A DNA stretch of 64,000 bases, from positions 10,664,001 through 10,728,000 of the forward strand of contig JAGIQG010000023.1 in the NCBI GenBank assembly GCA_024679065.1, read 5' to 3'. The stretch comes from Sphyrna mokarran (Eukaryota). Both the position numbers and the translations under genes were made by a program. A model generated the notes under the pieces. That model made no database searches, was not told the origin of the DNA, and saw only the letters and a list, made by a program, of their open reading frames with translations. Shown one piece after another: positions 1,250-36,550 of this stretch. Numbering within the stretch: position 1 is the stretch's first letter; each line of letters begins with the position of its first letter.

Positions 1250-1576
1250 TTTTACGGACACAAACTGCCTCGATAGTGATGAAAGCTGCAGTGGGAGAAA
1301 CCGTCACTGTGGAATGTCCACAGGCAACACGGCACAAACAACGAGAAATCTGGTGGTGTAAGGAAACTTCAGATAATAATTGCAATCTGATATCGTGCAC
1401 TCATGGAGATCGCATCAGAAATGATGATGGAAGAACATCGATTGTTAATACCGATGGCAAAATTTCTGTAAATATACTACAACTTAAGGAAACCGATACA
1501 GGAACATACTGGTGTGAACCTCCATATCAAAACACATCACAGATTTCAGATGTTATATTACTGAAGGTTTTCTCAG
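1250..1576 (+). CDS. CD300/pIgR-like inhibitory receptor, V-set Ig domain exon D1 (leader exon not found in window)
   Basis: Acceptor CCCACAG at 1249, donor GTAAGA at 1577, phase 1-1, 327 nt; G-ETVTVEC, WWC-x7-C second disulfide, ETDTGTYWC. Confidence 0.9.
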
Positions 1577-1814
1577 GTAAGAATCTTTCAGAAGATTGAT
1601 TTTAGCTCTGATAATGTGATCTGGCTGCAATAACACAGGGCAGCTGCTGTGTGAACTCAAATTAATAAAATATCACAACTCCTCATGTGCAAATAGTGAC
1701 CTCCCATATTCCCATTTCTATCCATTTCCATTAACCTATTTCTGTATCCTTTCCTTCTTTATTATCTTCCCGTCATACTCTTACAAAGCAAAAATCATAT
1801 TTATCTAAAACCTC

Positions 1815-2100
1815 TTTTATTCTTTCATTCATGGGATGTGCCTAAAACACCTTTTATTACCCATCTCTAATTACCCTTCAGAAGGTTGTGGTGAACTGCC
1901 TTCTTCAACTGCTGCAGCCCATGTGGTGTATGTACACCCACAGTGCTGTTAGAGAGGGAGTTCCAGGACTGAGCCAGTAACAGTGAAGGAACAGGGATAG
2001 ATTCCCCAGTCTGGATGGTGTGTGTTTTGGAGGGAAGCTTGTCAGTGGTGATGTTCCCATACACCCACTTCTCTCCTCCTTCTAGATGCTAGATTTGGAA
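1815..2100 (-). mobile_element. 3' fragment of the second (CR1/L2-superfamily) LINE family
   Basis: Reverse complement matches the 3' end of the element at 51690-54310 (CACATCCCATGAATGAA tail). Confidence 0.7.
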
Positions 2101-2482
2101 GGAGATTTAATTCAAAGCTGCGTGTCTCCATAGTAACTTTGTAATAAATCGAGGGCGACTCAGTGTGACTTGAACCAATAAAGGCTTTATTGCCAACAAT
2201 ACAGATATATATGACAAGGTCACACTGAATTACAATGTGACTCTACAACTTGGCTCCCTGGCTCCAACTGCGAGATGTTTCTCAACCCATGGTATACACC
2301 TTCTTGCTGATTGGCTCAGCTTCTGGCCTAGACAATCCATAGTGTCCGGAGGGATCACGTATCTCTAAGGAATGCTTTTCCCCCTAACGAGACACCCTGC
2401 TCCAAAATTATCCCTAATTTCTGTTGACATCCAGACAAACAGCTCTACAATTCTATAAAACACATAAGCACCTGAGTAATAG

Positions 2483-2565
2483 ACACACACACACACACGC
2501 ACGTGCGCAGACACACACACGCACATATGCATGCACACGCACATGCACATGCACGTGCACACACA
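2483..2565. repeat. (CA)n/(CATGCA)n microsatellite
   Basis: Imperfect CA repeat seen directly. Confidence 0.85.
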
Positions 2566-3969
2566 CCTTCATTTACAAACCATATACTACATATCTGAAC
2601 TCAGATAGACTTCCCCATTCCCCAAACAACCTCCACCTAAAACAAATCTACAAGGAAAATCTAGACTCTCAATACCAGGAGGGTGATCCAGTTTGGGAAT
2701 TGCCTGCCTGGTTTAGCAAAGACAGATAAACTGCCTTTATGAAGGTTTCTGCAATAAGTTAGCTGTAAGACTTTAGAAGTGGCCTCCCTTATTAGCTAGC
2801 TTGCTGTTAGAGATTATCCTGGCCTTCCTGTGACATGTTAAAACCAATCTTCCTGTGACGTATTAAAAATAACCTTCCTATAAGTGTTAAAACTGACCTG
2901 TCTGCTTTTGTGAGAGTTGGTGATTATACCCTGGTTATCTTTGATCCTGCTCACTGTATTATGGATTGTCTGTCTATCCCACATTCCTTGATCCTCGAAA
3001 ATTAGGATCTGTATGCCACTCCTGATACCACAGATATTTTGGTAAACAATTTCCTGATAATAGGGCCATTTACGTCTGATCTTATCTAGATGGTTGCTAG
3101 GCAACGTGTCTCATCAACACCTTTGAACATGAGTTCCTGCTGTTGCCAGGCAGATTCTCCCTATTTTGCCAATGGCACTGCCGCCCAACCACCCAGGAGG
3201 CTTCAATGGGCTCCAATCCCACCGGCGAGGCAATCACATCTTCCCTGTTGATGGGGAACCATACCTTATCTTGCAAGTAAGGACCTCAGCTGGTGTAAGG
3301 TAAGGGCAAGTGAGCCCAGACAATAGCATGTGGTACTCACTAATTACACACTCAGTCTCAAAGATTCCTCTCACTCCAATCACCGCTCTGCCCAACCCCT
3401 CCATCCAGACACCACTTCCCCCACTCTTGGATTGAGTCAGTCTTCTTCCCTCATAACGGCCACGGGCCCAGTGCAGGAATGGGTTACAAAGTGAACCTGG
3501 GTGTCATCTGGCTGGCACGGGCAAGATGGGCCAAACGACCTATTTCTGTGCTGTAATTTTCTGATGGTTCTTTCCCACTTCCTCCTCCCTCTATTCCCCT
3601 CTCCTGCACCCCACTCTTCTTCTCTCCTGTCTCCATCTCCCACTCAACACCAGGGCCACTGACACTCGATCCTGCCATCCTGAATACAGCGTAATAGTAA
3701 TGCATACATTAATAAAATGAACTAAGAACTACTGGGGATCTGGTAGTGGTTTTGAACATCTAGACTGATGGTTATTTTGTACTAATAAAAAAAAATTAAA
3801 TTCAGGTTTTATTTAATTCATTTCCTTGCATTTTGGTGCATGTTTTCTGAGTGAATTCAATGCCTTTGATCACTTTTAACATCAAATGTCTGTTGATCAT
3901 TTTTTTTGCAAAAGTAATGTTAACATTTTTTGTAGCTTTTGATCTCAATGGATGAAATTTAACCAGTCT

Positions 3970-4730
3970 GGGGTTTACCATTGACCAGAATCTGTACTGG
4001 ACCAGCCATGTAAACACTGTGGCTACTAGAGCAGAACAAAGGCAAGGAGGAATCCTAAAGCGAGAAACCCGACCACCTGGTTCCCCAAGGCTGACCATAG
4101 AACCGTAGAAATGATACAGCACAGAAGGGGGCCATTCAGCCCATCTTGTCCATGCCAACCCAAAGACACTCAGGTGCCCTTTCTAATCCCATCTTCATGC
4201 ACACGGCCCATAGCCCTGTAGCTGACAGCACTTAAGGTGCAGATCCAGGTACTTGTTAACAAGTTTAGAGTTCCTGCCTCCATCACCAACGCAGGCACTG
4301 AATTCCATTCCCATCATCTACAAGCCACAACTCAGGAATGAGATGTAATACTCTCCATTTGCCTGGATGAGTGCAATGACAACAACATTCAAGAAGGTCA
4401 ACACTGTCCAGGACAGAACAGCCCACTTGTTTGCTATCCCTTCGACAAAACGCTCAATCCCTCTCCCGTTGATGAACAGTGGCAGTGTACCACCTACAAG
4501 TTGCCCCACATGAACTTACTAAGATTACTTAGGCAGCACCTTGCAAACCCACGACCACCAACATCCAGAAGGACAAGAGCAACAAAGACCTGGGAACACC
4601 TTTCACTTGGAGGTTCACTTCCAAGTCACTTAGCATCCTAATTTGGAAATATATTGCTGTTCTTTTATTATCACTGTGTCTAAACCCTGGAATTCTCACC
4701 CTAACAGCACAGTGGGTATACTTTGCAATG
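3970..4730 (+). mobile_element. Second-family LINE 3' fragment interrupted by a CR1 tail (about 4097-4305, minus strand)
   Basis: Flanks resemble 53710-54210; insert starts ATAGAACCGTAGAA...GGCCATTCAGCCCATC, the reverse CR1 terminal motif. Confidence 0.65.
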
Positions 4731-5161
4731 AAGACTCAAACTCTGTTTGTCCTACAAGTAACAAACTCACATTGCTTGTAAGTCTTTAGTGTTCATCCAA
4801 ACTAGACCCAGTTCCTGTAGAATAGGCCTGGAGTTGGATACTATCCGTCAACTGTGAAAATTCACCCAAACACGCTGAGAAATTTCACTGCAGCTACAGA
4901 AAATAGAAATGGTTTATTAAACTTAGACACAAACACCTCAGAAATTTTAAATAAAAGTTTTAGAATAAGCAAAAATTTAATACAACAGCATTTAAGAATT
5001 ACACTGTATTTTAAGACTATAATCCTTTTTGTATTTTAAAAATAGAAAATACTATTGACATTTCCAATGTTTGGTTAATGTATCATGTTTTGGGCAATGA
5101 AAAATGTTCAGTTTTTCACCATTTTCAACTTTCAATGACTCTTTTTCTTATTTACCAACAG

Positions 5162-5488
5162 ATAAATGGGACCCAATCCGATCAAACATCAGTGGTGATG
5201 TGGGAAATGCCGCCACTATACCGTGTCTGTTCACGGACAGGGAGAAACTCTATAAGAAATTCTTGTGTAAAGCGACCGCTGTAAATAAATGTATTACTAT
5301 TGCCAGCTCTGATGGAGTTACAGAGAATCAGAATAATGAGAAAGTTTCAATCACTGTTAATAATGCTCATAATTTTACCGTTACCATGACTAACATAGAC
5401 AAAGACGAAGAAGGAGAGTATTGGTGTGGAGCTCAGAATATCAGTGACGTAAAGATCGTAGCGATTAAAAATCTGACAATTACTAAAG
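5162..5488 (+). CDS. CD300/pIgR-like receptor, V-set Ig domain exon D2
   Basis: Polypyrimidine tract plus CAACAG at 5161, donor GTAAGG at 5489, phase 1-1, 327 nt; G-NAATIPC, KKFLC-x7-C, EEGEYWCG; four N-glycosylation sequons. Confidence 0.92.
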
Positions 5489-5555
5489 GTAAGGACAAAT
5501 ATAAAATTATTATAATTCAATCAGTATTGCATAAAACTCACAAAATAATAACAGA

Positions 5556-5877
5556 GGCAGGCATGGTGATGCAATGATTGGCACTGCTGCCTCACAATGC
5601 GAGACCCGAGTTCAATTCCAGCCTTGTGGTCACTGTCTGTATGGAGTATGCACATTCTCCCTGTGTCTGCGTGGGTTTCTTCAGGGTGCTCCATTTTCCT
5701 CCCACACTCCAAAATGTGCAGGTTAGGTTGATCGGCCATACTAAATTGACCAAAGCATCAGGGGGATTACCAGGGTTAATATGGGTTACAGGAATAGGGC
5801 CTCGGTATGACTGTGGTGGGTACAGACTCAATGGGCCAAATGGCCTCCTTCTGTACTGCAGGGATTCTATGATTCTT
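5556..5877 (+). mobile_element. HE1-like SINE, tail type A (CR1/HER1-like)
   Basis: tRNA-like head, V-SINE-like core, tail ATGGGCCAAATGGCCTCCTTCTG...GATTCTATGATTCT. Confidence 0.88.
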
Positions 5878-6502
5878 TGAACATTTTATCAATGCTGTTC
5901 TTCATGTTTTACACCAGCCTATTGCCCTATTTCATCTCAATCTTGCAGCATATTCTTCTATTCTTTTCCCCCTTGGTAAGTTTTTCTCAATTACCCCAAA
6001 AAATATCTACAATATTTGGCACCACTGCACCTTATGGTACAGGGTAAACATAGAAACATAGGAAATGGGAGCAGGAGTATTCCTTCAGAATATCTCAGAT
6101 TCACTAACCAAAATCCTGCAATGTCCATAAACTGGACATCTTTAAGATGCCCTACACACCAATTTTAAGCGAGTATTTTTTTAAACTTACCTGGACAATT
6201 TAGCTAGGCCACTGTGTTGGCCATCATGTAGCTCTAGACTAATTAATGGCTTTACCACTTCATATTCCACTCTCTCCGCCACTCCAAGTGACCCTAATAC
6301 CAGCCAATCCAGAGAGACATGAACCATCCGTGGCTTGAAACACATTCCAGCAAGATCTGAAATCCAGGAGGATTGGATTTAAGCTACTGTACCCAATTCC
6401 ACATTGAACAAGTTCCACTTTCTAAGAAGTCTCTGGGTAAAGAGTTTAGAAACTTTCACTGATACTGATAGTAACCATCAATAATAAAAATACATTAAAA
6501 GT

Positions 6503-6815
6503 TCATACAATCCTCACAGTGCAAATGGAGGCCATTCAGCCTACATACACAACAATCCCATCCAGGCCCTATCCTCATAACCCCACACATTTACCCTGCT
6601 AATCCCCCAACACCAAGGGGTAATTTAGCATGGCCAATCAATCTTAACCTACACATCTTTGTTGCGTAGGAGGAAACCAGAGCACCCAGAGGAAACCCAC
6701 GCAGACACAGGGAGAGTGTGCAAACTCCACGCAGACAGTGACACAAGCCGGGAATCAAACCCAGGCTCTAGCACTGTGAGGCAGCAGTAGTAACCACCAT
6801 GCCACCACGCTGTAC
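6503..6815 (-). mobile_element. HE1-like SINE, tail type A
   Basis: Reverse complement of the same consensus. Confidence 0.85.
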
Positions 6816-7340
6816 CTCAGATTATTGTCCATTCGACACTATTAGCCCCCAGCAAAGGGCCCTCAGAATCTACCTTGTCCTCAGTCTTTTCTCAAGGTTA
6901 TATATGTTAGCTAATTTTATTGTTATCAAGAGGAAAGAAAATGAAGACGTGTCCTGGTATGGAACAGCAAAATTAAATGGTGTAAACCTTGTATAAATAA
7001 GAGAATTGAACAATTGCTGATGGTAAGATTCTATATAAGATTATTATAATTAGTTGGTACTGAATCGAATTCAGAACAGAAACTTGATCAATATCACTGT
7101 TTTTCACATGAGGCCCTTTCTAGTCACCCTTTATCTCACTCTTTACCCTTTGGTTCATTTCCATCTGAATGCCTTTATCTAGCTCCCTATTAAAAGCATC
7201 TATGACTCTTGCCACAACTTCTGCTTATGGTAGCAAGTTTCACATTTAACAGGTTCCACATTCTAACAACTCTGAGTAAAGAATTTTCTTCCTGAATTCC
7301 TCATCGGTTATTTTAATAGCCATTTCAGATTCTGTTTCTG

Positions 7341-7500
7341 TCATAATCATAGAATGATAGAATCCCTGCAATGCAGAAGGAGGCCATTTGGCCCATCGCG
7401 TTTGCATCCAACACAATCCCACCCAGGCCCTATTCCCGTAATCCTTCTTTTTTATCCTGTTAACTCCCCTGACACTAATTTAGCATGGTCAATCAACCTA
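7341..7500 (-). mobile_element. 3' half of an HE1-like SINE split by a CR1 insertion
   Basis: Tail repeat and body up to CAATCAACCTA; the other half resumes at 9672. Confidence 0.8.
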
Positions 7501-9671
7501 GCTGAGGGAATGGTAATTATGAGGCCATCAGGAGGGAATTAGGGTGCATAGGTTGGACTAGGAAACTACAGGGACTGGGAACATCTGAAATGTGGAGCTT
7601 ATTCAAGGAGCAGCTACTGCGAGTCCTTGATAAGTATGTCCCTGTCAGGCAAGGGGGAAATGGTCGAGTAAGGGAACCATGGTGTACTAAAAAAGTTAAT
7701 TTGCTGGTTAAAAGGAAAAAGGAGGCTTATGTCAGGATGAGGCTTGAAGGCTCAGTTAGTGCACTGGATAGCTATAGATTAGCCAGGAGGGAGCTAAAGA
7801 GCGAGTTGAGAAGAGCTAAAAGAGGATACGAGAAGACTTTGGCTGATAGGATCAAGGAGAATCCTAAAGCTTTCTTTAGTTATGTTAAGAATAAAAGATT
7901 GATTAGGGCAAGATTAGGGCCAGTCAGAGACAGCAGTGGGAAGTTGTGCATGGAGCCTGAAGAGATTGGAGAGGCACTGAACAAATATTTCTCTTCGGTA
8001 TTCACGCAGGGAGATGTAAAGGTAGTTGTGGAGAACACTGGGATACAGGGTTGCAAACTGGAAAGTATTGAAGTAGATAAGGAGGATGTGCTAGATATTC
8101 TTGAGGGTTTGAAGTTAGATAAGTCCCCTGGGCCGGACGGGCTTTACCCTAGGATTCTCTGGGAGGCGAGAGAGGAGATTGCAGAGCCTCTGGCTCTGAT
8201 CTTCAGGTCGTCGTTGATTACGGGTGTGGTTCCGGAGGACTGGAGGATAGCGAATGTGGTCCCGTTGTTCAAGAAGGGGAAGAGAGACCTTCCAGGGAAT
8301 TATAGGCCAGTGAGTCTTACTTCTGTTGTGGGCAAAGTATTGGAGAGAATTATTAGGAATAGGATTTATAGTTATTTAGAGAGAAATGAATTGATTGGGG
8401 ATAATCAGCATGGTTTTGTGAAGGGTAGGTCATGCCTTACTAGCCTTATTGAGTTTTTTGAAAAAGTGACCAAAGAGGTGGATGGGGGTAAGGCAGTTGA
8501 TGTGGTATATATGGACTTTAGTAAGGCGTTCGATAAGGTGGCCCATGGAAGGCTTCGGCAGAAAATGCAGATGTATGGGATTGAGGGTGATTTAGCTAAT
8601 TGGATTAGGAATTGGCTAGCTGATAGAAGACAGAGGGTGGTGGTTGATGGAAATTATTCATCATGGAGTTCAGTTACAAGTGGTGTACCTCAGGGATCTG
8701 TTTTGGGGCCACTGCTGTTTGTAATTTTTGTAAATGATCTGGATGAGGGTATTGAGGGATGGATTAGTAAATTTGCGGATGACACCAAAGTCGGAGGAGT
8801 GATAGATAGTGAAGAGGGGTGTTATAGTTTGCAGAGAGACTTGGACAAGTTGCAGAGCTGGGCCGAGAGGTGGCAAATGGAGTTTAATGTGGAAAAGTAT
8901 GAGGTAATTCACTTTGGCAGGAATAACAAATGTGCAGAGTATAGGGCTAATGGTAGAACTCTTAATAGTGTTGATGAACAGAGGGATCTTGGTGTATATG
9001 TGCATAGATCCCTGAAAATTAGCAATCAAGTCGATAAGGTTGTTAAGAAGGCATACGGAGCCTTAGCTTTTATTGGTAGGGGGATTTCGGAGCCGCAACG
9101 TCACGTTGCAATTGTACAAAACTCTAGTGCAGCCGCACTTGGAGTATTGTGTGCAGTTCTGGTTCCCGCATTATAAGAAAGATGTGGAGGCATTGGAGAG
9201 GGTACAGAGGAGGTTTACCAGGATGTTGCCTGATATGGAGGGCAGGTCTTATGAAGAGAGGCTGAGGGATTTGAGGTTGTTTGCGTTAGAAAGAAAACGG
9301 CTAAGAGGAGACCTTATTGAAACATATAAGATGATTAGAGGTTTAGATAGGGTGGACAGTGATAGCCTTTTTCCTAGGATGGAGAAAGCTAGCATGAGAG
9401 GACATAGCTTTAAATTAAGGGATGGTAGTTATAGGATGGATGTCAGAGGTAGGTTCTTTACCCAGAGGGTGGTAAGGGTATGGAATGCCCTGCCTGCTGC
9501 AGTTGTAGATGCGCCAAGTTTGGTGGCGTTTAAGAGGTTAGTAGATAAGTTTATGGATGAAAAGGGAATGGTTTAGGTTAAAGGGTCATTGCTTTTTCTT
9601 AATTGGTCAGCGCAACATCGAAGGCCGAAGGGCCTGTTCTGCGGTCTAATGTTCTATGTTCTATGTTCTAT
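7501..9671 (+). mobile_element. 5'-truncated young CR1/HER1-type LINE (ORF2 reverse transcriptase, one frameshift)
   Basis: KSPGPDG, NYRPVSLTS, QHGF, YMDFSKAFD, SGVPQGSVLGP, KFADD; 5-nt deletion near 9085; (GTTCTAT)n tail. Confidence 0.95.
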
Positions 9672-9800
9672 CTCCTGACCGTGCAAGGAAACCGAAGCAC
9701 CCAGAGGAAACCTGACATGGGGACAATGTGCAGACTTCACACAAACAGTGACTCAAGGCCAGGATTGAACCTGGGTACCTGGCGCTGTGACACTGTGCTG
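9672..9800 (-). mobile_element. 5' half of the split HE1-like SINE
   Basis: GGAAACCGAAGCACCCAGAGGAAACC...GGATTGAACCTGGG continues the SINE broken at 7500. Confidence 0.78.
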
Positions 9801-9904
9801 TATCACCCCAGTACATAAGTGGAAACATCTTTTATGTCATATGATTTTCTTTCCCCACTATGCATGGAATGTTGGTGCCACTGAGGAGGCCAGTTCTAAC
9901 GAAA

Positions 9905-10880
9905 TTTGATTTGATTTGATTTATCATTGTCACATGTATTACTATACAATGAAAAGCATTATTTCCTGCATGCTATACAGACAAGGCATACCATTTAGAG
10001 ATAAGGAAAGAAAAGAGTGCAGAATGTTACATTCATAGCTAAGATGTCGAGGAAGATCAGCTTAGTGCAAAGTAGGTCCATTATAGAGTCTGATGGCAGC
10101 AGAGGAGTAGCCGTTCTTGAGTTTTTGTATCTTTTTCTGACAGAAGAAGATGGAAGAGAGCATGTCCAGGATATGTGGGGTTCTTGATTCTGCTGGCTGC
10201 TTTTCCGAGACAGCAGGAAGTGTAGACAGAGTCAATGGATGGGAAGCTGATTTGTGTGACGAACTGAACATCATTCATGACCCTTCGTAGTTTTTTTGAG
10301 GTCTTAGGCAGAGCAGGAACCATACCAAACTGTGACACAACCAGAAAGAATGTTTTCTAGGATGCATCTGTAAAGGTTGGTGAGAGTTGTAGTGGACATG
10401 CCAAATTTGCTTAATCTTTTGAGAAAGTAAAGGCATTGGGAGGCTTTCTTAACTATAGTGAGGGTTAACTATAGGACAGGTTGTAGTGATCTGGACACCT
10501 AAAAGCTCGGAGCTCTCGACCTTTCTACTTCACCTCCATTGATGTAAACAGGGACATATCCTCTACTACACTTCCTGAAGTCGATAACAATTTCCTTCAT
10601 TTTGTTGATATTGAGGTAGAGATTGTTGTTGTCGCGTCAGTTCACTAGAATCTCTATGTTGTTCCTGTACTCTGTCTCATCACTGTTTGAGATCTGACTC
10701 ACTGGTGGTGATGTCATCAGCAAATTTGTCCACATGGTCATCAGTGTATAAGGAGTATTAAAGGGGGTTAAGGACACACCTTGTTGGGCACCGATGTTGA
10801 AGATGATTGTGGAGGCAGCGTTGTTGTCTATCCTTACGATTGCGATCAGTGGGTTAGGAAGTTCAGGATCCAGTTGCAAA
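9905..10880 (-). mobile_element. Rex1/Babar-type LINE 3' fragment, degraded
   Basis: RT remnants GAQQG and ISNSDETEYR; tail ACATGTGACAAT..(AAATC)n on the minus strand. Confidence 0.7.
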
Positions 10881-11022
10881 TGTGGACATTTGGTGACAGG
10901 TCACTTTTGCAATCCGTATAGCATTGGTGCTGTTTGGGAGAGAATTCCAGGATCCGAATCCAGTGAGAGTGAGAGTGATGCATTCCTAAACCTGGATAAA
11001 ACATTACATATACTTATTTAAT

Positions 11023-11200
11023 CAGGCAGCATGTGGCACAGTGATTAGCACTGCTACCCCACAACACCAGGGACCCTGGTTCAATTCCGGCCTTGGGTCA
11101 GTGCTGGTGTGGAGTTTGCACATTCTCCCCATATCTGTGTGGGTTTCCCCTGGGTGCTCAGTCCAAAAATGTACAGCAAAGGTTGATTTGACTATAAGTT
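11023..11200 (+). mobile_element. 3'-truncated HE1-like SINE
   Basis: Head and core present, tail absent. Confidence 0.8.
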
Positions 11201-11334
11201 GAATCCATCTCTTCCTCTGCTCCTTTTGCACAAAATTGTGCAACAATTCAAGATAAGGAAATCCGTTCAACCAATCTTTGTCTATCCATCCATAGCCATC
11301 CAGAATTTGACCAGTTGGCTCAAGGACACTGAAA

Positions 11335-11680
11335 GGGCGGCACGATAGCACAGCGGTTAGCACTGCTGTTCACAGCTCTAGGGAGCTGGGTTCAATTCTC
11401 GGCTTGGGTCACTGTCTGTGTGGAGTTTGCACATTCTCCCCATGTCTGCGTGGGTTTCCTCCGGGTGCTCAGGTTCCCTCCCACAGTCCAAAGATGTGTG
11501 GTTTAGGTTGATTGGCCATACTAAAATTGCCCCTTAGTGTCTTGAGGTGTGTAGGTTGGAGGGATTAGCAAGTAAATGTGTAGGGATGCGGGAGTAGGGA
11601 CTGGGTGGGATTGTGGTCAGTGCAGATTCAATGGGCCGAATGGCCTCTTTGTGCACCATAGAGTTTCTATGATTCTATGA
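11335..11680 (+). mobile_element. HE1-like SINE, tail type A, full length
   Basis: GGGCGGCACG head, B-box GGTTCAATTC, core, (GATTCTAT) tail. Confidence 0.9.
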
Positions 11681-11857
11681 AAGAGCCAGTGATCAGAATG
11701 GTTAAAATATGTCCCTTTCGCCACAGAACTGCCCCAACCTGCAACCTTAATATTTTGCTTTCTTAAATACTGTGTGATGAAAATAAAAGTATGTTATTAT
11801 TGGGAATTATGTCAGTTATTGACTGACTTTTTCATTTATGTTTGCTTGTAAAAACAG

Positions 11858-11891
11858 GGAATTCATATAACCAAAACTCCAAAGACCAAAG
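11858..11891 (+). CDS. Receptor stalk mini-exon (GNSYNQNSKDQS)
   Basis: Acceptor AAACAG at 11857, donor GTGAGA at 11892; 34 nt, phase 1 to 2, exactly the shift needed to join D2 to the TM exon. Confidence 0.8.
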
Positions 11892-12404
11892 GTGAGATTT
11901 CAATAATTGCCTTAATTTAATTTCTAATCATTCCAATTAAACTCATATTGATTAGATAGTTCTGCTCTCTTCACAAGAACTGCTGAGCAATCTGATACCT
12001 TCAAAACCCACAACTGCCAGTGTGGTCCTATGCTTTTCCTCATATAATTTCTATTGATATCTTCCTGTTTAATATAAGCATCGATTTCAGAGAGCAAAGG
12101 TTTCCACAGGCTCTGATGGGCCAAATGGTCTCTTTGTGCACTGTAGGGTTTCTGTGATTCTATGAAAGAGCCAGTGATCAGAATGATTAAAATATGTCCC
12201 CTTCGCCACAGAACTGCTCCCCACCACCCTGCTGTGCCATATCATTTGCTTTCTTAAATACTGTTAATCTTACAGCTGGCGATGATCAGTGGCTCCAACA
12301 TTCAAGGCTAAGTGCTGGTAAATGGGATTCAGTGGGAGGGGAGGTGTTTCCCGCATGTCAGTGCAGGCTCCAAGAGCTGAAGGGCCTCTTCTGCATTGTA
12401 TGAT

Positions 12405-12700
12405 TGTTGCCCATCCCTAATTGCCCTTGACAAGGTGGTTGCTTGTCATCATGTGCCACTGTAGTCCACAAGGTGTAAATATTCCCATCGGATTACTAGA
12501 AAGGCAGCTCCTGGATTTTGACCCAGTGACAATGAAGGAAACTTGATACATTTCCGAGTCCCACGAGTGTGGGCATTTGAAGGAAAGTCACAAGTGGTGG
12601 TGTTTCTGGGCACCTTCCTTGTCCTTCTAACTGGTAGAGGTTGCAAGTTTGGAGCACGCTATTGAGGATACCTTGCTGGATTGCTTCAGTGTATTGCCAA
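12405..12700 (-). mobile_element. Second-family LINE 3' fragment
   Basis: TTGCCCATCCCTAATTGCCCTTGA matches the reverse tail of 51690-54310. Confidence 0.65.
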
Positions 12701-12863
12701 CCATGAGAGATAATCTCACCAGAATATAACTCATCTTTCGATTAGGGGATATTACATCAAAAATCAGAAATCGCATGTGGGTAGTGTCGGGTTCGAGACA
12801 TACCCAACGATTTGATAGCCGAGGAAAGTGTGTTTATAATGTGACCACGCAGGTTGAGTATTG

Positions 12864-13170
12864 GTGGCACGGTGGCAGTAGTGAGGACAGCTGCCTCACA
12901 GTGCCAGGTACCCGAGTTCAATTCCGGCCTTGGGTGACTATCTGTGTGGAGTTTGCACATTCTCCCCATATCTGGATGTGTTTCCTCCAGGTGCTCCGGT
13001 TTCCTCCCACGCTCCAAAGATGCGCAGGTTAGGTTGATTAGCCATGCTAAATTGCCCCTTACTATCAGGGAGATTAGGACTGTAAATATGTGGGGTTACG
13101 GAGAAGGGACCTGGGTGGGATTGTTGTCAATGGGCCAAATGGCCTTCTTCTCCATTGCAAGGATTCTAAG
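12864..13170 (+). mobile_element. HE1-like SINE, tail type A
   Basis: Head, core and tail match other copies. Confidence 0.85.
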
Positions 13171-13291
13171 AGTATCAACCCGTAAAATTCTTCCAACATA
13201 CGCCAAAGCAGATGGTTAGCGTAGGAGAAATTCCTGGTTAATCATGCTTGATGAAGTGGTGCCTCTGAGCTGTAAACCTCTGGTGACGGGC

Positions 13292-14275
13292 TAGTGAACT
13301 GTTCAGGGAAGACATCACTATGGAGACAGATGGAAATCTCTGGAGTTTAATACAGACAAGTGTGACGTATTGCACTTTGGAAGGACAAACCAAGGTAGAA
13401 CATACAAAGTAAATGGTAAGATACTGATGAGTGTAGTAGAATAGAGAAATCTGAGAATACAGATACATAATTCCCTAAAAGTGGCGTCACGGGTAGATAG
13501 GATCATAAAGAGTTCTTTGGCCTTTATAAATCAAAATATTGAGTATAAGAATTGGAATGTTATGGTGAAGCTGTATAAGACATTGGTGAGGGCCAGTTTA
13601 GGGTATTGTGTGCAGATTTGGTCACCTAATTACAGGAAGTTGAAAGAGTGAAGAGAAGGTTTACAAGGATGTTGCCGGGACTCGAGAAACTGAGTTACAG
13701 AGAAAGGTTGAATAGGTTAGGACTTTATTCCCTGGAGCGTAGAAGAATGAGGGGAGATTTGATAGAGGTATATAAAATGATGATGGGTATAGATAGAGTG
13801 AATGCAAGCACGCTTTTTCCACTGAGCTAGGGGAAAAAAAATACTAGGGGGAAAATTTTAAGGGAATAATGGGGGGGGAGCGTTTTTCACACAGAGAGTG
13901 GTGGGAGTGTGGAATGAGCTGCTAGATGAAGCGGGTTCACTTTTAACATTTAAGAAAAACTTGAACAGGTACATGAATGAGAGGGGGTGGAGAGATATGG
14001 TCCAAGTGCAAGTCAGTGGGACTACGCAGAAAAATGGTTCGGCACTGCCAAAAAGGGCCAAAAGGCCTGTTTCTGTGCTGTAATGTTCTATGGTTCTATG
14101 GAAACTGCGTCATGCAGATTCCATAGGGTCTTTGAAGAGACTTTTGGATAAGTACATGGGACTTGGTAAGATAGAGGGTTATAGATAAGCCTAGTAGGTA
14201 GGAATATGTTCGCCACAACTTGTGGGCCAAAGGGCCTGTTTCTGCTGTAGTTTTTCTATGTCCTATGTTCTATGA
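13292..14275 (+). mobile_element. CR1-type LINE 3' fragment followed by a second short CR1 tail
   Basis: RRFTRMLPGL and ERRRMRGDLIEVYK; two successive GGCCTGTTTCTG..(GTTCTAT)n ends near 14100 and 14272. Confidence 0.85.
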
Positions 14276-14406
14276 ACCTCTAGTTATAGGAAGACAAACA
14301 ACATTAAAAACCAGTTGTATCATTTAGTTCACAATTTACTATGTTTTACTTTTTTTAATCATGTGTACAAAGTCTTAATTCAATCTATTCCACTTGAATC
14401 CTTTAG

Positions 14407-14525
14407 CAATATCACTTCACTGAAATGGTACATCATCCTTTCTGTTGTTCTGGGACTGTTAATCTTACTACTGTTGGTTTTATTCATATTCAGAAGAAAA
14501 ATGCAAAGATCAGCCAGAGAGCAGG
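14407..14525 (+). CDS. Receptor transmembrane exon
   Basis: Acceptor CCTTTAG at 14406 (phase 2), donor GTAAGT at 14526 (phase 1); WYIILSVVLGLLILLLLVLFIF then RRK stop-transfer; no charged TM residue. Confidence 0.9.
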
Positions 14526-15537
14526 GTAAGTAGCCATGAAGACATTTTCTTTGCAATAAATATGCAACATGAATTGCCCAGTGGAATAGCACAATAATAC
14601 ATTATGGGTATAAAATTGAAAAGAACTGCTTTTCAATCAGAGACAGGAAGAATTAAATTTTCCCAGTTTTATGGAAGTGAGTTAAGTAAGTGAGACTGGG
14701 AATAAAGTTATAAAATGGCGCTCAGGTCAACTACCAGAATCGTTCCCATCGCTGAATGCCCTTGCCCAAGTTGAGTCAATCTGGCAAAGGTCACCCACAC
14801 TGGGGCAGCGGCTAAATAATTGGGTACATTAATGAGATAACTGGGGGTGTGGGGGGGAGACAGATGATGGCTTTGTTGGGATCTTCACAATAGCAGATGG
14901 GAGCCATGCTGAGGCCCAAACCTAATAGACAACTGGATGTAGCCTTGTTGCGATAGGACTTGAGGCAGTTAATACCTCCACTTGATCGAGACTGTTGGTG
15001 GTCACCAGCAATATCTGCAGCCACAGGCCATGCTGTGGAGGGTTCCGTCACCATGGCCACATAGCTCTGGGCCAGCGCAATTTTCAATTTCTCCCAATGT
15101 TACAGAGAGTATCTCCAGTTTGAAGTTCCCTCATAATCTCCCACCAAGAGCAACTCTTGGTGGAGTTGCTGTCAAGACACAGCTGTAGGGCCTTCTATTT
15201 CGGCTTCTGCTTCCAATAGTCTGCGGTCTCTGACCTTAACTGAACTGGAATTCCGGCACTGGCCTCTCTGAAAAATCACAATCCACCAAGGCCTCCTCCA
15301 CACACTGAGCTGAAATTGAGGCAAAGATCAAGGTCACGACGCAACCAATAAAATTCATCCTTCGGACCATCCAGCCCCTCCAGCCCAACCAATTTTGGTC
15401 AATTCTTTCACTGCATGTTTGGCATATAAACAATAAAAGGTGAGAGGGGTGATGAATAAAGCAGGCTTTCCATCCTAACACATAAGATATGGGCAGGAGG
15501 CATGCTCCATTGGAACCTGCCATCCAGTGTAATATAG

Positions 15538-15690
15538 TTGGCACAATGGCTCAGAGGTTAGTACTGCTGCCTCAAAGCTCCAAGGACCTGGGTTCAATTC
15601 CTGACTTGGGTCACTGGCTGTGTGGAGTTTGCAAGCTCTCCCTGTGTCTACATAGCTTTCCTCTGGGTGACAGTAATAAATAGATTTTAA
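15538..15690 (+). mobile_element. HE1-like SINE, type B, with internal deletion
   Basis: Head and core to CTCTGGGTG joined directly to the type B end GACAGTAATAAATAGA. Confidence 0.7.
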
Positions 15691-18204
15691 ACAAGAAAGA
15701 TATGTGCCGGCTAAGAGTAAAGATGGAAAAGGTAGGATTAGAGAGCCGTGGATTACTAGGGATATTGAGGGCTTGGTTAGGAAGAAAAGAGAGGCGTATG
15801 ATAGGTCAAAGCAGCTGGGATCTGAGACAGTGTTGGAGGAATATAGAGAGAGTAGGACGGAGCTCAAATGGGGAGTTAGAAGGGCAAAAAGGGGGCATGA
15901 AATGATTTTGGTGGATAGGATTAAGGAAAATCCAAAGGCTTTTTACTCCAATGTTAGGAATAAAAGGGTGGTTAGAGGAAAAATCGGACCTCTGAGGGAC
16001 AGAGGAGGGGAACTGTGCTTAGAGCCCGAGGGAATGGGGGAGATCCTGAATGAATACTTTGCGTCGGTATTCACAAAGGAGAGGGGCTTGTTGACAGCTC
16101 CTGTCTCTGAGGGAGCTGTGGACCAATTGAAGGAAATATCCATACTGAGGGAGGAAGTGTTAGAGCTTCTAGGTAGCATTAAAACTGATAAATCTCCGGG
16201 GCCTGATGGCATTTATCTCAGGCTGCTTAGGGAGGTGCGAGGTGAAATTGCTGGGCCTCTGACACAAATCTTTGTCTCTTCTTTGGACACAGGTGAGGTC
16301 CCAGAGGACTGGAGAATAGCTAATGTTGTACCGTTGTTTAAAAAGGGTAGTAGGGATAACCCTGGAAATTATAGGCCAGTGAGTTTGACGTCAGTGGTAG
16401 GGAAGCTGTTGGAGGGGATTCTTAGAGATAGAATGTATAGGCACTTAGAGCATTGCGATCTGATTAGGGATACGCAGCATGGCTTTGTTAAGAGGAGGTC
16501 ATGCCTTACAAATCTGGTAGAATTTTTTGAGGAGGTGATGAAAACGGTCAACGAAAGGTGAGCTGTTGATGTCGTCTATATGGATTTCAGTAAGGCGTTT
16601 GACAAAGTCCCTCATGGGAGGTTAGTTGAGAAGGTCAAGGCTCATGAGATACAAGGACAGGTAGCTAGATGGATAAGTAACTGGCTTAGTAATAGGAGAC
16701 AGAGAGTAATAGTGGAAGGGTGTTTTTCTAGCTGGAGGTCGGTCACTAGTGGTGTGCCGCAGAGCTCAGTACTGGGACCTCTTCTATTTGTAATATATAT
16801 AAATGACTTGGAAGAGGGAGTAAGTGGAGTGATCAGCAAGTTTGCAGACGATACAAAGATGGCTGAGCTTGCGGATAGTGAGGAACATTGTCAGGCGATG
16901 CAACAGGACATAGATAGGCTGGTAGCTTGGGCAGATAGATAGCAAATGGAATTCAAACCTGATAAATGCGATGCACTTTGGGAGAAATAATGTAGGGGGA
17001 AGGTATATGATAAAGGGTAGAGCTATTAAGAGTATAGAAACGCAGAGGGACCTGGGGGTGCAGGTGCACAAGTCTCTGAAGGTGGCAGAGCAGGTGGAGA
17101 AGGTTGTGAAGAAAGCATATGGTGCGTTCGCCTTTATAAGAAGGGGTATAGAGTACAAGAGCTGGCCTTTAATGTTGCATTGTATAAAACGTTAGTTAGA
17201 CCTCATTTGCAATACTGCATCTAGTTCCAGTTGCCTCGCTACCGGAAGGATGTGGAGACTCTGGAGAGAGTGCAGAGGAAGTTTACCAGGATGCTGCCTG
17301 GTATGGAAGGTCTGAGGTGCGAGGAGAGGTTAGGCAAATTGGGACTGTTTTCCTTAGAAAGATATAGACTTAGAGGAGATCTAATAAAGGTGTGCAAGAT
17401 TATGAGGGGTATAGATAGAGTAAACAGGGTTAAGCTTTTTGCTAGGTTGGACTCAAATAGCACGAGGGGTCACGGGCTTAGGGTGAGGGGGGTAAGGTAT
17501 AACTTGGATGCTAGAGGGAGTTTTTTCACACAGAGGGTGGTGAGGGTATGGAATGCGCTACCAAGTAAAGTGGTGGAGGCAGGCACTCTGGAGTTATTTA
17601 AGAAATACTTAGATGGGCACATGAACAGAATGGGAATGGAGGGGTATAGAAAACCGATTTAAAATAGGGATCATGAGCCTTGGGAGTCCCTGGGAAGTAT
17701 GTAAATAGATGATGATATTGATGTACTTATTTTTATCCTACAGGTGATTTGGTCCGCCTTGTTGTCTAATAAGGGGCATACACGCAATGGGTCGTGAGAG
17801 GGCTACTCTTGGATTTTTTTTGAGAGGATCCTAGTGCTTCACGTTGTTAGTTTGCGCTTGACCTGGACCATTTGATGGGCAACACGACAGTTCAGTGACT
17901 ATCGCTGTGCTGTGTAGATACATGGATTTGGGCCTGTGTCTGTGGGAGTTTGCGCATTCTCCCTGTGCTTGCGTAGGTTTTCTCCGGGCGCTCCAGTTTC
18001 CTCCCACATCCCAAAGATGTGCTCTTCGGCTAATTGGCAAAACAAATTCTCCCTAAATTGTCTCAAATTTGGTTTTTAATCCATAGATCTATAAACATGG
18101 ACAGGGTTCACAGGTAGAGGTGGGAACATCAGGGTGGCGGCGCGGGCTCGTTGGGCCGAAGGGCCTGTTTCCCGTTCTGTTTTGTTCTTTGTTTTTTGTT
18201 CTTT
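15691..18204 (+). mobile_element. 5'-truncated CR1-type LINE, ORF2 with a few stops and frameshifts and an unusually long 3' UTR
   Basis: RT motifs across ORFs 15704..16561, 16580..16942, 16971..17195, 17231..17662; terminal GGGCCGAAGGGCCTGTTT plus (TTTGTTCT)n. Confidence 0.93.
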
Positions 18205-18393
18205 ATTAATGATATTGCATCAGCTTCTGAATCATTTCACAACACAGTGACATGGTTTGCAGTAAATCTCTAATGCATGGTCAAAGTTCCTGATACTCAA
18301 TGTCTTCATTTCCCCACTCTATTCCTTCCCTTCTGTAGCCACTTCTTCTTGATCACCTTGGCCATTTTAGACAGTAAGTGTAGATAGAAGAAA

Positions 18394-18689
18394 AAGTTTA
18401 TTTATTAATGTCACAGATCAGCCAACATTAACAGTGCAATGAAGTTACTGTAACAATCCACTTGTTGCCACACTCCAGTACCTGTTTGGGTACACTGAGG
18501 CAGAATTTAGCATGGCCAGTGCACCTAACCAGCACGTCTTTCAGACTATGGGAGAAAACCGGAGCACCCGGAGGAAACCCATGCAGACCTGGGGAGAACA
18601 TGCAGACTCTGCACAGACAGTGACCCAAGCCAGGAATCAAACCCAGGTCCCTGATGCTGTGAGACAGCAGTGCTAACCACTGTGTCACA
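18394..18689 (-). mobile_element. HE1-like SINE, tail type B
   Basis: Reverse complement of type B consensus. Confidence 0.87.
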
Positions 18690-19083
18690 GAGCTACTGCA
18701 AAAATAGGAAGTTACTCAGCTGCAGCAGATACCACTGTGGACTTTGATGCTCTCTCGCCCAATGTCCACAAGCAGAAATTCCTGGATAGCAGCGACAGAA
18801 CTTCTGTCTGATCTTCTCTCCCCGAGTTGGGATGCTGAAATCATTTTCAGAGCCCCAAACACAGGTGCTTTTGAGATTAACTCACTATAAAAGTGCAAGA
18901 AACAAAAATGTATTTATAAAGCTCAATGACTTATGGTGCTAACTTGCTTTAACCATTGAAATAGCAGTTTGAGTCTTGGGGTTTTATTTATTTAGAGTTG
19001 TGATGTGGGGGATGCTGTGTCATAGAATCCCTACAGTGCAGAAGGAGGCCATTTAATCTATCAAATCTGCACCAACACTCCAA

Positions 19084-19350
19084 TGTGGCACAGTGGTTAG
19101 CACTGCTGCCTCACAGCACAGGGGACCTGAGTTCAACCCCCAGCTTGGATCACCGTATGGAGTCTACATGTTCTCCCCCTATCTAAGTGGGTTTCCTTCC
19201 ATAGTCTGAAAGACGTGTGGTTTATGTGCGTTAGCCATGCTAAATTCTCCTTCAGTGTACCCGAACAGGCGCTGGAGTATGACAATTGGGGATTTTCACA
19301 ATAACTTCATTGCAGTGCTAATGTAAGCCAACTTGTGATTAATAAATTAA
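19084..19350 (+). mobile_element. HE1-like SINE type B nested in an older minus-strand type A remnant (19020-19083, 19360-19427)
   Basis: Type B head-to-tail copy flanked by two pieces of reverse type A tail. Confidence 0.75.
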
Positions 19351-19440
19351 TGTTAATTCTTTAACAAAGCATGTTACCTAGACCTTATCTATGTAACCCC
19401 TAATCTTCCTAACCTATATGTCTTAGGTTATATGCTTTCA

Positions 19441-19755
19441 TGGTATCACAGCATACCACATTCTATTTCATGGCATCTCAGTATATTATATTCTGCTCCA
19501 TAGTATCTTAATGTTCTACACCCTGCTCCATAGTATCTCAGTGTTCTACACTCTGCTCCATAGTATCTCAGTGTTCTACACTCTGCTCCATAGTATCTCA
19601 GTGTCCTACACTCTGCTCCATAGTATCTCAGTGTTCTACACTCTGCTCCATAGTATCTCAGTGTTCTACATTCTGTTCCAAAGTATCTCAGTGTTCTACA
19701 CTCTGCTTCATAGTATCTCAGTGTTCTACACTCTGCTCCATGATATCGCAGTGTG
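19441..19755. repeat. 30-bp minisatellite, about 10.5 units (TAGTATCTCAGTGTTCTACACTCTGCTCCA)
   Basis: Eight near-perfect units 19501-19740, two degenerate 5' units and a partial 3' unit. Confidence 0.95.
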
Positions 19756-19980
19756 CCTTTTGATCAATGTTGTGTCACATTGAGGTTTTCCTGTCATGTG
19801 GTTAATGAATAACTCTCTCTGTGGTAGACTCAAAGAACATGATTGGGTTGATGTGGGCAGGTGTCTGTAAGCATGAAACTAATTTGAGTTTCTCACAGTG
19901 AATATCCATTTCAGGATAAAATAGAACAAAGTGACAGAAGATTTTTATTGTAATTGAATCATATGTTATTTATTTTCCAG

Positions 19981-20027
19981 ACAAGAATGAAAATGAGAAT
20001 GTGAAACCCCAGACACTGGTCACAGAG
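19981..20027 (+). CDS. Receptor cytoplasmic exon 1 (DKNENENVKPQTLVTE)
   Basis: Acceptor TTATTTTCCAG at 19980, donor GAG/GTATGA at 20028; 47 nt, phase 1 to 0, links TM exon to last exon in frame. Confidence 0.85.
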
Positions 20028-20129
20028 GTATGAATGAAAGCAATTTAAAATGATAGAAGTTCCATTTCTTGTATTTTGCAATTATTTAACACAAACGTCA
20101 TTTCTTTATTAAACTCCAAATTCCCTCAT

Positions 20130-20427
20130 TATAAAATCTGACACTGCAGAAGGGTGCCATTTGGCCCATCAAGTCTGCTCCAACCACAATCCCAGGCAAG
20201 CTCTATCCCTAAATATTTACCCCAGCTGATCCCCCTGACACTAAGGGTCAATTTAGAAATAACCAGTCAGCCAAATCTGCACATCTTTGGACAGTGGGAA
20301 GAAACCAGAGCATGCGAAGGAAACCCACGCAAACACAGGGAGTACGCGTTGACTCTGCACAGACGGCAACCCAAGCCAGGAATTGAACCCACATCCCTGG
20401 CGCTGTGAGGCAGCAGTGCTAACCATC
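20130..20427 (-). mobile_element. HE1-like SINE, tail type A
   Basis: Reverse consensus match. Confidence 0.82.
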
Positions 20428-20809
20428 CTGTGGAACTGTTTCGCCATACTCACCATAACTATATCGACATTATATACATCTGTAAAGCAACAGTGATGGT
20501 TGGACAGGAACTTGCAAAAGAGTGATGTCCCCGTGCATTTGCTCCATTTGTGCTCCCAGCTGATAACTAGCTCTGACACACGCACTGCTAATAGAGCGAA
20601 TGAATGCTTAAGGTGGTAATAGAGGGCCACGTGAGTAGGTTGTTTCATCCTGGAAGATGTTGAGTTTCCTGGGTTACGCTTATCAAGTAAGTAAAGAGTA
20701 TTCCAGGATCTTCTTGCCAGACCTATTGATGATGGAATTTAAGGAGGTTGGAGGTGACTTACTTACCATAGAATTCCCCACCTTCACCTTGCTGTTCAGT
20801 ATACAAAGG

Positions 20810-21292
20810 GATCAAGGAACAGCCCAGCAGAGGAACAGACCTTTTGGCCCATCAAGCCAGTGCTGAATACAATGTTCTATCCAAACTACCCGTCTTTATC
20901 CCTCTATTCCCTGCCTATTCATGTCTATCCAGATAAGTCTTAAATGTGGCTAATGTATCTGCCTCAACCACCTCATTTGGCAGTGCATTCCAGGCCCCCA
21001 CCGCCCTCTGTGTGAAAGACATCTCTGCTGAACATTTCCCCCGCTTTAACTTGAACTTGTGCCCCTTTGTAATTGTCACTTCTGCTCTGGGAAAAAGTTT
21101 CCAACTGTTCATCCTATCTATACCCCTAATAATTTTATAAACTTTTTACCAAGTCACCCCTCAGCCTCTGTCTTTCTAGGGAAAATAATTCCAGCTCATT
21201 CAATCTCTCCTCATAGCTAATACCCTCCGTGCCAGGCAACATCCTAGTAAATATTTTCTGTACTCTCTCCAAAGCCTCCATGACCTTCTGGT
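20810..21292 (-). mobile_element. CR1-type LINE 3' fragment
   Basis: Minus-strand FTQRAVGAWNALPNEVVEA. Confidence 0.82.
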
Positions 21293-21431
21293 ATATCTAT
21301 GTCTGGTACTGTTAGACAAATGGTAACTCCCAGGATGTTAATGTTGGGGCAGTATCATAGAAATGTAAGTGTGCATATTTTGTCTGATTACCTTTAGACA
21401 GCAGCAAGCACAAATAATGTTTTTATTTCAG

Positions 21432-21611
21432 TTTGACAGAGAGGAGGAAGACGCAGTCACTTATTCTGCTGTGGAGATTCAGGCTTCCACTCAAAGAGGA
21501 GAAAATTCTATAATTTACGCCAATTTGAAGAACACAAAAACGCAAAGTGGTGGCATCGTGATCAATTCTTCAGAATCAGTGGAATATTCCACAGTGATAT
21601 TTGGATCCTAA
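21432..21611 (+). CDS. Receptor terminal coding exon with three ITIM-consensus motifs
   Basis: Acceptor TTTTATTTCAG at 21431 (phase 0); VTYSAV, IIYANL, VEYSTV; stop TAA 21609-21611. Confidence 0.9.
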   Translation, partial: FDREEEDAVTYSAVEIQASTQRGENSIIYANLKNTKTQSGGIVINSSESVEYSTVIFGS

Positions 21612-34061: not shown

Positions 34062-34068
34062 CTAATAC
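34062..34068 (-). CDS. AHCYL1: AHCYL1 last coding exon (R-Y-stop)
   Basis: Acceptor TTTTTTTTCCCCTTCTTGCAG then G TAT TAG, completing the conserved C-terminus KPNYYRY. Confidence 0.88.
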
Positions 34069-34299
34069 CTGCAAGAAGGGGAAAAAAAATGCTCCATGTA
34101 AAGAAGAGATTGCTTTACTATTCCATTAATGGTTAGCCTTGTTTGCGTTAACAGTTTAAGAACAGGTTCCTCCTTGAAGGACTAATAGTTGTACATACTA
34201 TCCTACTCTTTACACAAAAAGGTTGTTCCACTTAACTAGTCTAAACAATGACTTTCATTACTACAATCAATGGAACATTGACCAAACTATTAATGAGGG

Positions 34300-34617
34300 T
34301 GCCTGAGTGGTTAGCACTGCTGCCTCACAGGAACTTGGGTTCAATTCTGGCCTTGGACGGCTATGTGGAGTTTGTAATGTTCTCCCCATGCCTGTGTGGG
34401 TTTCCTCAGGTCACCTCGCACACATCAAAGATATGCAGGTTAGTTGTACTGGCCATGCTAAATTGCCCCTTAGTGTCCCAAGATATGTAAGTTAAAGGGA
34501 ATTGTCGGGTAAACGTGGAGTTATGGGGATAAGGCCTGGTGTGAGATACTCTGTCAATGAATCGGTGCAGACTTAATGGGCCCAATGGCCTCCTTCTGTA
34601 CCCTAGGACTCTGTGAT
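34300..34617 (+). mobile_element. HE1-like SINE type A
   Basis: Consensus match. Confidence 0.8.
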
Positions 34618-35182: not shown

Positions 35183-35198
35183 GCGCTCCCTCTGGTGG
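35183..35198 (-). promoter_or_regulatory. Candidate CTCF site
   Basis: Minus strand CCACCAGAGGGAGCGC is close to the CTCF core consensus; motif evidence only. Confidence 0.4.

Positions 35199-35465: not shown

Positions 35466-35702
<237 letters not shown>

Positions 35703-36129: not shown

Positions 36130-36550
<421 letters not shown>

Follow-up and report, generated by a model that had tools for sequence, protein, structure and literature searches.

The V-type immunoglobulin (Ig) domains of TREM, CD300, PIGR, and FCAMR proteins have been described as carrying a second cysteine pair of the form C-x6-9-C between strands C and C' (bioRxiv 10.1101/2022.04.21.489081). Chicken TREM-B1 has two V domains, an uncharged transmembrane segment, and three tyrosine motifs (TIYAAI, VMYVNI, and VEYATL), and it recruits SHP-2 and inhibits thrombocyte degranulation; in chicken TREM-B2, the two-domain unit is duplicated in tandem (PMC4788293). 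Skate MDIRs (modular domain immune-type receptors) are multigene activating and inhibitory receptors resembling CD300, TREM/TLT, and pIgR (PMC3031540), and a genome survey of 2014 reported no pIgR or Fc-receptor homologues in cartilaginous fishes (PMC4016189). Here, we describe a receptor gene of this superfamily in a window of 64,000 nucleotides (nt) from the shark Sphyrna mokarran (GenBank assembly GCA_024679065.1, contig JAGIQG010000023.1, positions 10,664,001 to 10,728,000, forward strand). Its six exons in the window probably encode a type I inhibitory receptor belonging to a family kept across cartilaginous fishes, the oldest lineage with antibodies.

Six exons form an open receptor frame

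The receptor gene lies on the forward strand. Two exons each encode one V-set Ig domain, namely domain A, which is membrane-distal within the window (1250..1576), and domain B, which is membrane-proximal (5162..5488), both recognized by their splice ends and by Pfam, PDB, and fold searches. They are followed by a 34-nt stalk exon (11858..11891, phase 1 to 2), found by its splice ends and its similarity to the Mustelus stalk; a transmembrane exon encoding an uncharged hydrophobic helix and then basic stop-transfer residues (14407..14525); a 47-nt membrane-proximal cytoplasmic exon (19981..20027, phase 1 to 0); and a terminal coding exon with three tyrosine motifs, identified by alignment and a tail profile (21432..21611). 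Exon ends are canonical for all six segments, with AG before and GT after, and the last closes with the stop codon TAA. The exon lengths of 327, 327, 34, 119, 47, and 180 nt sum to 1034 nt when spliced, and the phases (1-1-1-2-1-0) join them into a frame that opens with a 2-nt phase-1 overhang, runs through 343 codons without a stop, and closes with TAA. An earlier note on this DNA had proposed just such a phase-matched chain of about 344 residues without stops, and it holds.

The exon pattern goes beyond chance, since the four-Cys pattern occurs in only 2 of the 49 stop-free six-frame stretches of at least 100 residues in the window, exactly the two Ig exons, and since the spliced product can be aligned over its full length to four shark proteins at 45–58% identity. 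A pseudogene or a chance assembly of exons would be in keeping with a leader that is not in view and with the weak similarity support for the stalk exon. We nevertheless regard this as very improbable, given 343 codons free of stops and frameshifts, canonical splice sites, intact structural cysteines and tyrosine motifs, and the end-to-end match to orthologues; the predicted gene is intact.

The stalk exon is the least secure of the six predicted exons. The intron around it offers 372 open AG..GT phase 1 to 2 candidates. Similarity to the Mustelus stalk is highest for this exon and one other candidate (score 8), and the other lacks splice signals. The donor of the stalk exon matches at 8/9 positions, and its polypyrimidine value of 0.55 falls narrowly under the cut-off of 0.6; the four other candidates above that cut-off all have negative similarity to Mustelus. 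The stalk and transmembrane exons (11858–14525) together measure 153 nt, so that joint skipping would stay in frame. A predicted Mustelus isoform (P0159) lacks both segments, with domain B joined directly to the equivalent of the 19981..20027 segment, and a similar skip in the window gene would yield a form without the transmembrane helix.

Upstream of exon 1 the window holds 1249 nt, whereas the introns of the receptor gene span 1.4–6.4 kb. With the leader outside the window, the gene model is 5'-incomplete, and two Ig domains are therefore a minimum count.

Both domains are double-disulfide V domains and the tail carries three tyrosine motifs

Both Ig domains match the Pfam V-set family PF07686 (E = 2.5e-13 for domain A and 6.5e-10 for domain B), although they are only 28% identical to each other. 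AlphaFold models of domains A and B show a nine-strand V-type layout, with predicted local distance difference test (pLDDT) scores of 84 and 86, respectively. The disulfides, which are predicted from the sequence, comprise the B–F pair Cys22/88 and the extra C-x7-C pair Cys36/44 in domain A, and Cys130/197 and the extra C-x7-C pair Cys144/152 in domain B, which also carries four N-glycosylation sequons. Domain A has a fifth, apparently unpaired cysteine, Cys49, that is absent from aligned relatives and could form disulfide-linked dimers or be a private variant.

The transmembrane helix, at approximately residues 237–258, is uncharged, and exons 5 and 6 encode an 87-residue tail. The motifs around its three tyrosines, VTYSAV (tyrosine encoded at 21462), IIYANL (21516), and VEYSTV (21585), are spaced 18 and 23 residues apart, and all of them match the consensus of the immunoreceptor tyrosine-based inhibitory motif (ITIM). 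When the window tail is aligned with those of nine orthologues, Tyr1 and Tyr3 are present in 10/10 and Tyr2 in 9/10. The middle motif is Y-x-N, a Grb2-type consensus, in all nine tails that have Tyr2. The uncharged helix and the three conserved motifs support the inhibitory type that had been assigned to this gene from its letters.

The receptor has orthologues from chimaera to ground sharks

Homologue searches returned relatives that NCBI has automatically named "pIgR-like" or "CMRF35-like". A first round found shark orthologues in Mustelus (domain B 74–77% identical), two Scyliorhinus species, Carcharodon, and Hemiscyllium; additional orthologues were found in Cetorhinus, Pristiophorus, Heptranchias, Heterodontus, Pristis, Mobula, Amblyraja (E = 8e-77), Narcine, and Chiloscyllium, and skate, ray, and chimaera orthologues also in Leucoraja, Hypanus, and Callorhinchus. 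The NCBI-predicted proteins of Mustelus (XP_078098264), Hemiscyllium (XP_060701239), Amblyraja (XP_032898784), and Callorhinchus (XP_042198079) belong to this orthologous family and share its transmembrane segment and three-tyrosine tail. Mustelus is especially close: the window domains A and B are 67–77% identical to their Mustelus counterparts, and the transmembrane segment and tyrosine tail are 91% and 72% identical to those of Mustelus P0158. The Mustelus orthologue differs in having one more A domain, and the window receptor in having Cys49. Across the family, mean pairwise identity is 60–61% for the transmembrane segment and tyrosine tail, 44% for domain A, and 49% for domain B.

We placed the domains in three trees: a first from a set of 130 domain rows, of which 39 were left out as repetitive or unnamed; a second from 65 rows under the LG+G4 model; and a third from 34 hand-picked rows under a mixture model, which was also used for approximately unbiased (AU) tests. 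Domain B forms a clade with support of 100/98 in the 65-row tree and 99/98 in the 34-row tree. In the tree from the 130-row set, it branches into chimaera, rays, and squalomorph and galeomorph sharks, as expected from the order of cartilaginous fishes, and the window sequence stands beside Mustelus. Its nearest relatives thus make a ground shark (Carcharhiniformes) its probable source. Because orthologues occur across elasmobranchs and chimaera and domain B follows the species tree, this is an old orthologous lineage. The receptor had been called lineage-specific, a term that does not survive its orthologues in sharks, rays, skates, and chimaera or the like layout in coelacanth described below.

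Domain number is modular in the family (A-B, A-A-B, and up to 8 domains). The full three-tyrosine form was found in 13 species, 11 of which have A-B, with A-A-B in Mustelus and A-B-A-B-A-B in S. canicula; the six-domain form may be a fused gene model. Alternatively, the receptor might extend upstream to a total of at least three Ig domains, with the six exons as just its 3' part; this would be compatible with the inhibitory reading, and we consider it a minority prospect. The short sequence upstream compared with the introns, a phase-1 start that fits a leader or a further A domain, and the A-A-B arrangement in both inhibitory and activating forms of Mustelus, the nearest relative, speak for it. 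The 11 of 13 full-tailed species with A-B only speak for a two-domain receptor. Moreover, the four Mustelus A domains tested together form the sister group of the window domain A (Shimodaira–Hasegawa support 87), which fits a duplication after the split of the two lineages, although homogenization would look alike.

Relatives with a charged transmembrane segment point to a paired system

The same A and B domains are found with an arginine in the transmembrane segment and nearly no tail in Mustelus, S. canicula, S. torazame, Hypanus, and Callorhinchus, and this segment type also occurs in coelacanth and a caecilian. In the tree from the 130-row set, the activating and inhibitory forms cluster by lineage, a pattern typical of paired receptors in which the ectodomains remain similar. 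From these relatives, we infer that the window gene would be the inhibitory half of a paired system in S. mokarran, with an activating partner of near-identical ectodomain. One of the arginine-bearing proteins, P0204 of Callorhinchus, is named "polymeric immunoglobulin receptor" by NCBI despite its activating layout; this name is likely a misleading automatic label.

Among ground-shark paralogues, entropy is above 1.5 bits in 26 of 108 columns of domain A (19 distinct domains) and in 8 of 108 columns of domain B (14 domains), a contrast that reflects amino-acid entropy only, measured on samples of unequal size. The highly variable columns of domain A cluster in loops.

Superfamily membership is firm and affinities to TREM, CD300, and PIGR are mixed

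The earlier note had placed the receptor in the CD300/TREM/pIgR group of extra-disulfide V domains, and here it was right: both domains have V-set folds and C-x7-C pairs, and the nearest solved structures are all group members. Superfamily membership is therefore firm. Top Foldseek matches of the AlphaFold models are TREM2, CD300A/C/LF, pIgR domains, FcmR, and NKp44 at near-equal scores; TREM2 narrowly leads for domain A, and domain 2 of mouse pIgR leads for domain B. The family profile for domain B scores the CD300LF/C/A structures at 55–65 bits and pIgR domain 1 (D1) at 40–42 bits; that for domain A gives NKp44 49, FcmR 43, and TREM2 34–38 bits.

The trees rest on 109 columns, too few to resolve deep forks, and on rows that do not include mammalian CD300 sequences. 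Domain A groups with coelacanth, amphibian, and bird TREM-B-like domains in the 65-row tree (96/84), but this branch collapses under the mixture model in the 34-row tree, and for this reason we do not file the gene as a TREM. The "TREM-B-like" label of the bird rows was assigned from their layout, from equal TREM and CD300 scores on one row, and from a primer in PMC4788293 compared by eye; one such row that was looked up has the NCBI name "pIgR-like". In both the 65- and 34-row trees, turtle and echidna CD300 domains stand in a separate clade that includes neither A nor B. The AU tests reject none of five unions: domain A with pIgR D1 (p = 0.18), domain B with pIgR D1 (p = 0.32), CD300 with domain B (p = 0.21) or domain A (p = 0.11), and the TREM-B union (p = 0.45). 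Any of TREM, CD300, and PIGR may be the closest family.

These comparisons bear on whether the window receptor is the shark equivalent of pIgR or FCAMR, that is, a polymeric-Ig receptor or an Fc receptor for IgM, IgW, or IgNAR. NCBI names its orthologues "pIgR-like" and a chimaera protein "polymeric immunoglobulin receptor", pIgR heads the PDB sequence searches as well as the fold search with domain B, teleost pIgR likewise has two domains (PMC9321927), and the AU tests tolerate both unions with pIgR D1. The PDB rank, however, sums five domains, and domain by domain the CD300 structures score higher, as given above. In both pIgR and FCAMR, binding takes place at the CDR1 (complementarity-determining region 1) region of D1 (PMC7709107), and the corresponding regions of A and B are two residues shorter than in 4/4 pIgR/FCAMR-type D1 rows and lack the conserved loop. 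FcmR, with a very short CDR1, still binds IgM (PMC7709107), so that the missing long loop is compatible with Ig binding. The pIgR tails, in turn, score no more than 8.3 bits against the tail profile of the family, which lies within the range of the shuffles. An ITIM tail, partners with a membrane arginine, and an outer domain with hypervariable loops suit a leukocyte receptor of the paired type rather than a carrier of a fixed self ligand.

The proteins pIgR, FCAMR, FCMR, and teleost "pIgR" share the fold group and the extra disulfide with the window receptor, but they fall in separate clades in all three trees, and the window receptor has ITIMs and neither a D1-type CDR1 loop nor a pIgR-type tail. 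Without that loop and that tail, antibody transport by the window receptor appears unlikely, and we give an identity with pIgR or an Fc receptor little credence. The same missing loop in both domains counts against the suggestion of the earlier note that IgM, IgW, or IgNAR might be the ligand.

Chicken TREM-B1 is the best characterized look-alike of the predicted receptor

The window receptor resembles chicken TREM-B1 in its two V-set domains (a minimum here), its uncharged transmembrane segment, and three tyrosines of like order and style; the first tyrosine lies in an ITIM in the window receptor and in an immunoreceptor tyrosine-based switch motif (ITSM) in TREM-B1 (PMC4788293). The likeness is one of layout, as the grouping of domain A collapses under the mixture model and bird tails score 9–12 bits. 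The earlier note had implied that two V domains combined with ITIMs would be new, whereas TREM-B1 had already been characterized with that layout (PMC4788293).

Mammalian CD300a and CD300LF share the C-x7-C V domain and are the top single-domain matches for domain B (55–65 bits), but they have one Ig domain; two or three are present in CMRF35-like proteins of turtle and echidna. CD300a and CD300LF also combine an ITIM tail with activating paralogues. A search of the open literature for a CD300a lipid motif found nothing.

The window gene might instead be an orthologue of a cloned skate MDIR (MDIR2 or MDIR3), in which case its gene type has already been published. We compared MDIRs by description only, as modular, activating and inhibitory receptors of cartilaginous fishes that resemble CD300, TREM, and pIgR (PMC3031540); that description fits, and domain number is modular here as well. 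This identity nonetheless seems doubtful, because no record named MDIR appears among 35 and 26 search hits that include the skate orthologues of Amblyraja and Leucoraja, and a second chondrichthyan family (P0246, P0309, P0191, and P0203) is an equally good MDIR candidate. A further point against it is that MDIR domains have reportedly been classed as I/C2 set, and the window domains are V-set.

Like layouts occur beyond the family

The tail profile was built on 10 tails and run against 103 other tails and 2060 shuffles, the best shuffle reaching 12.6 bits. Outside the family, the best scores come from the second chondrichthyan family (44.5 and 43.3 bits), paddlefish (34.0 bits), and coelacanth (30.1 bits), followed by three unnamed tail rows at 13.5–16.7 bits. 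Axolotl (11.2 bits), bird TREM-B-like (9.2 and 11.5 bits), and turtle and echidna CD300-like tails (5.1 and 4.1 bits) lie, like those of pIgR, inside the shuffled range.

Two proteins of Latimeria (P0238 and P0265), one of Microcaecilia (P0304), and one of axolotl (P0328) are two-domain receptors with either a three-tyrosine tail or an arginine-bearing transmembrane segment. Comparison of these sequences suggests that the activating/inhibitory pair may be older than the split between sharks and bony vertebrates.

One or two additional shark and ray families, which are closer to CD300 (P0246, P0309, P0191, P0203, P0240, and P0241), show the same tail layout together with arginine-bearing forms on contigs equal in length to those of the window receptor's family, and they are MDIR candidates. 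The second chondrichthyan family, which is also the more expanded one, is listed on such contigs in Carcharodon, Narcine, and Heptranchias, which suggests one shared cluster.

AHCYL1 and repeats flank the receptor gene

The neighboring gene, AHCYL1 (IRBIT; 34062..58102, reverse strand), is convergent with the receptor gene, with approximately 12.5 kb between the stop codons of the tail-to-tail pair. Its 11 internal exons (58102–35467) form one open frame of 334 residues, the last coding exon likely lies near 34068–34062, and the 5' part is beyond the window. The AHCYL1 grouping has support of 100/99 in a tree with only 2 AHCYL1 rows, 24 of 37 homologue rows having been left out for gaps or short cover, and 7/7 diagnostic AHCYL sites are AHCYL1-type (compared with 13 AHCYL1 and 21 AHCYL2 rows, partial rows included and three doubtfully named rows excluded). 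A leader-like frame at 29270–29578, just past the end of AHCYL1 and on the strand opposite to it, had no family match above the cut-off and was set aside.

AHCYL1 is presumably located on chicken chromosome 26 and, in human, near the CD300-like gene TMIGD3 at 1p13, and we take the human CD300 locus not to lie beside it. In human, AHCYL1 is followed by STRIP1. Chicken chromosome 26 carries TREM genes (PMC4788293) and PIGR genes (PMC4016189), and the human CD300 locus is on chromosome 17 (PMC3031540).

Remnants of reverse transcriptases of the long interspersed nuclear element (LINE) type were recognized by eye at 7506–9663, 15680–17662, 46963–47529, and 49028–50020. The copies at 8683–9663 and 49035–50020 are 93% identical over 986 nt, which indicates that the element was recently active. 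A tandem array of approximately 10 copies of a 30-nt unit (19439–19754, 86–90% identity) lies 230 nt upstream of receptor exon 5, and dispersed repeats of 200–300 nt that resemble short interspersed nuclear elements (SINEs), with 73–83% identity between copies, occur for example at 430–730, 5574–5876, 6529–6805, and 11339–11656.

Proposed function and meaning

We consider it probable that the gene encodes an inhibitory receptor of type I that belongs to the double-disulfide V-domain superfamily, is orthologous to the receptor kept across cartilaginous fishes, and damps activation via tail phosphatases. The exon chain, V-set folds, uncharged helix, three conserved tyrosine motifs, and arginine-bearing relatives are features of the locus and its family; the subsequent steps are modeled on chicken TREM-B1 and CD300a/f. 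The receptor would sit on a leukocyte or thrombocyte, where ligand engagement of the outer domain A would cluster it and Src-family kinases would phosphorylate its tail. The ITIM-type tyrosines would then recruit SHP-1 or SHP-2 and dampen activation, while the middle Y-x-N motif might additionally dock Grb2-type adaptors, making mixed signaling possible.

Several points weigh against this proposal. No leader exon was found in the window, the best leader-profile score being 6.5 bits against 23–31 bits for training rows, and sequence and profile searches found no Ig exon in the window besides A and B; the leader and any further Ig exons would lie outside it. Similarly, tblastn and profile searches of the window found no arginine-bearing transmembrane exon (best 9.9 bits against 43–67 bits for training rows). 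The difference in variability between A and B is subject to the limits of an entropy measure noted above. Finally, the related TLT-1 is reported to co-activate through SHP-2 (PMC4788293), so that ITIM-like motifs do not guarantee inhibition.

As for the ligand of the proposed inhibitory receptor, we give roughly even odds to a host surface cue, either a lipid exposed there or a protein of the cell surface, that is mimicked or bound by microbes; this would account for how variable the domain A loops are. A polymeric Ig is much less likely.

More tentatively, the ancestor of jawed vertebrates might have had a two-V, three-tyrosine inhibitory receptor with an arginine-bearing twin. It would survive in the shark gene, in the "CMRF35-like" pairs of coelacanth and amphibians, and in avian TREM-B. 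In mammals, TREM/TLT-1 and CD300 would derive from it with a single domain, and the TREM, CD300, and PIGR loci would have had their ancestral site in the shark cluster flanked by AHCYL1. The boldest extension of this scenario, a long shot, would make the window receptor an inhibitory Fc receptor for shark polymeric Ig, of a kind not known in this lineage. Flowers et al. 2021 reportedly found such domains clustered in shark and chimaera, in synteny with the human PIGR locus.

Our literature search, with most subscription journals outside its scope, found no study of the window gene and no functional study of its orthologues, which does not establish absence from print. The gain is incremental, since the superfamily has already been named in print (cited in PMC11955638) and orthologues are already in the automatic annotation of NCBI. 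With its conservation between chimaera and ground sharks, its activating twin in relatives, and the similar layouts of coelacanth, amphibian, and bird receptors, it is a concrete candidate through which to ask which ligand was bound by the ancestor of TREM, CD300, and pIgR, and it may offer an entry point to inhibitory signaling on shark thrombocytes or myeloid cells.

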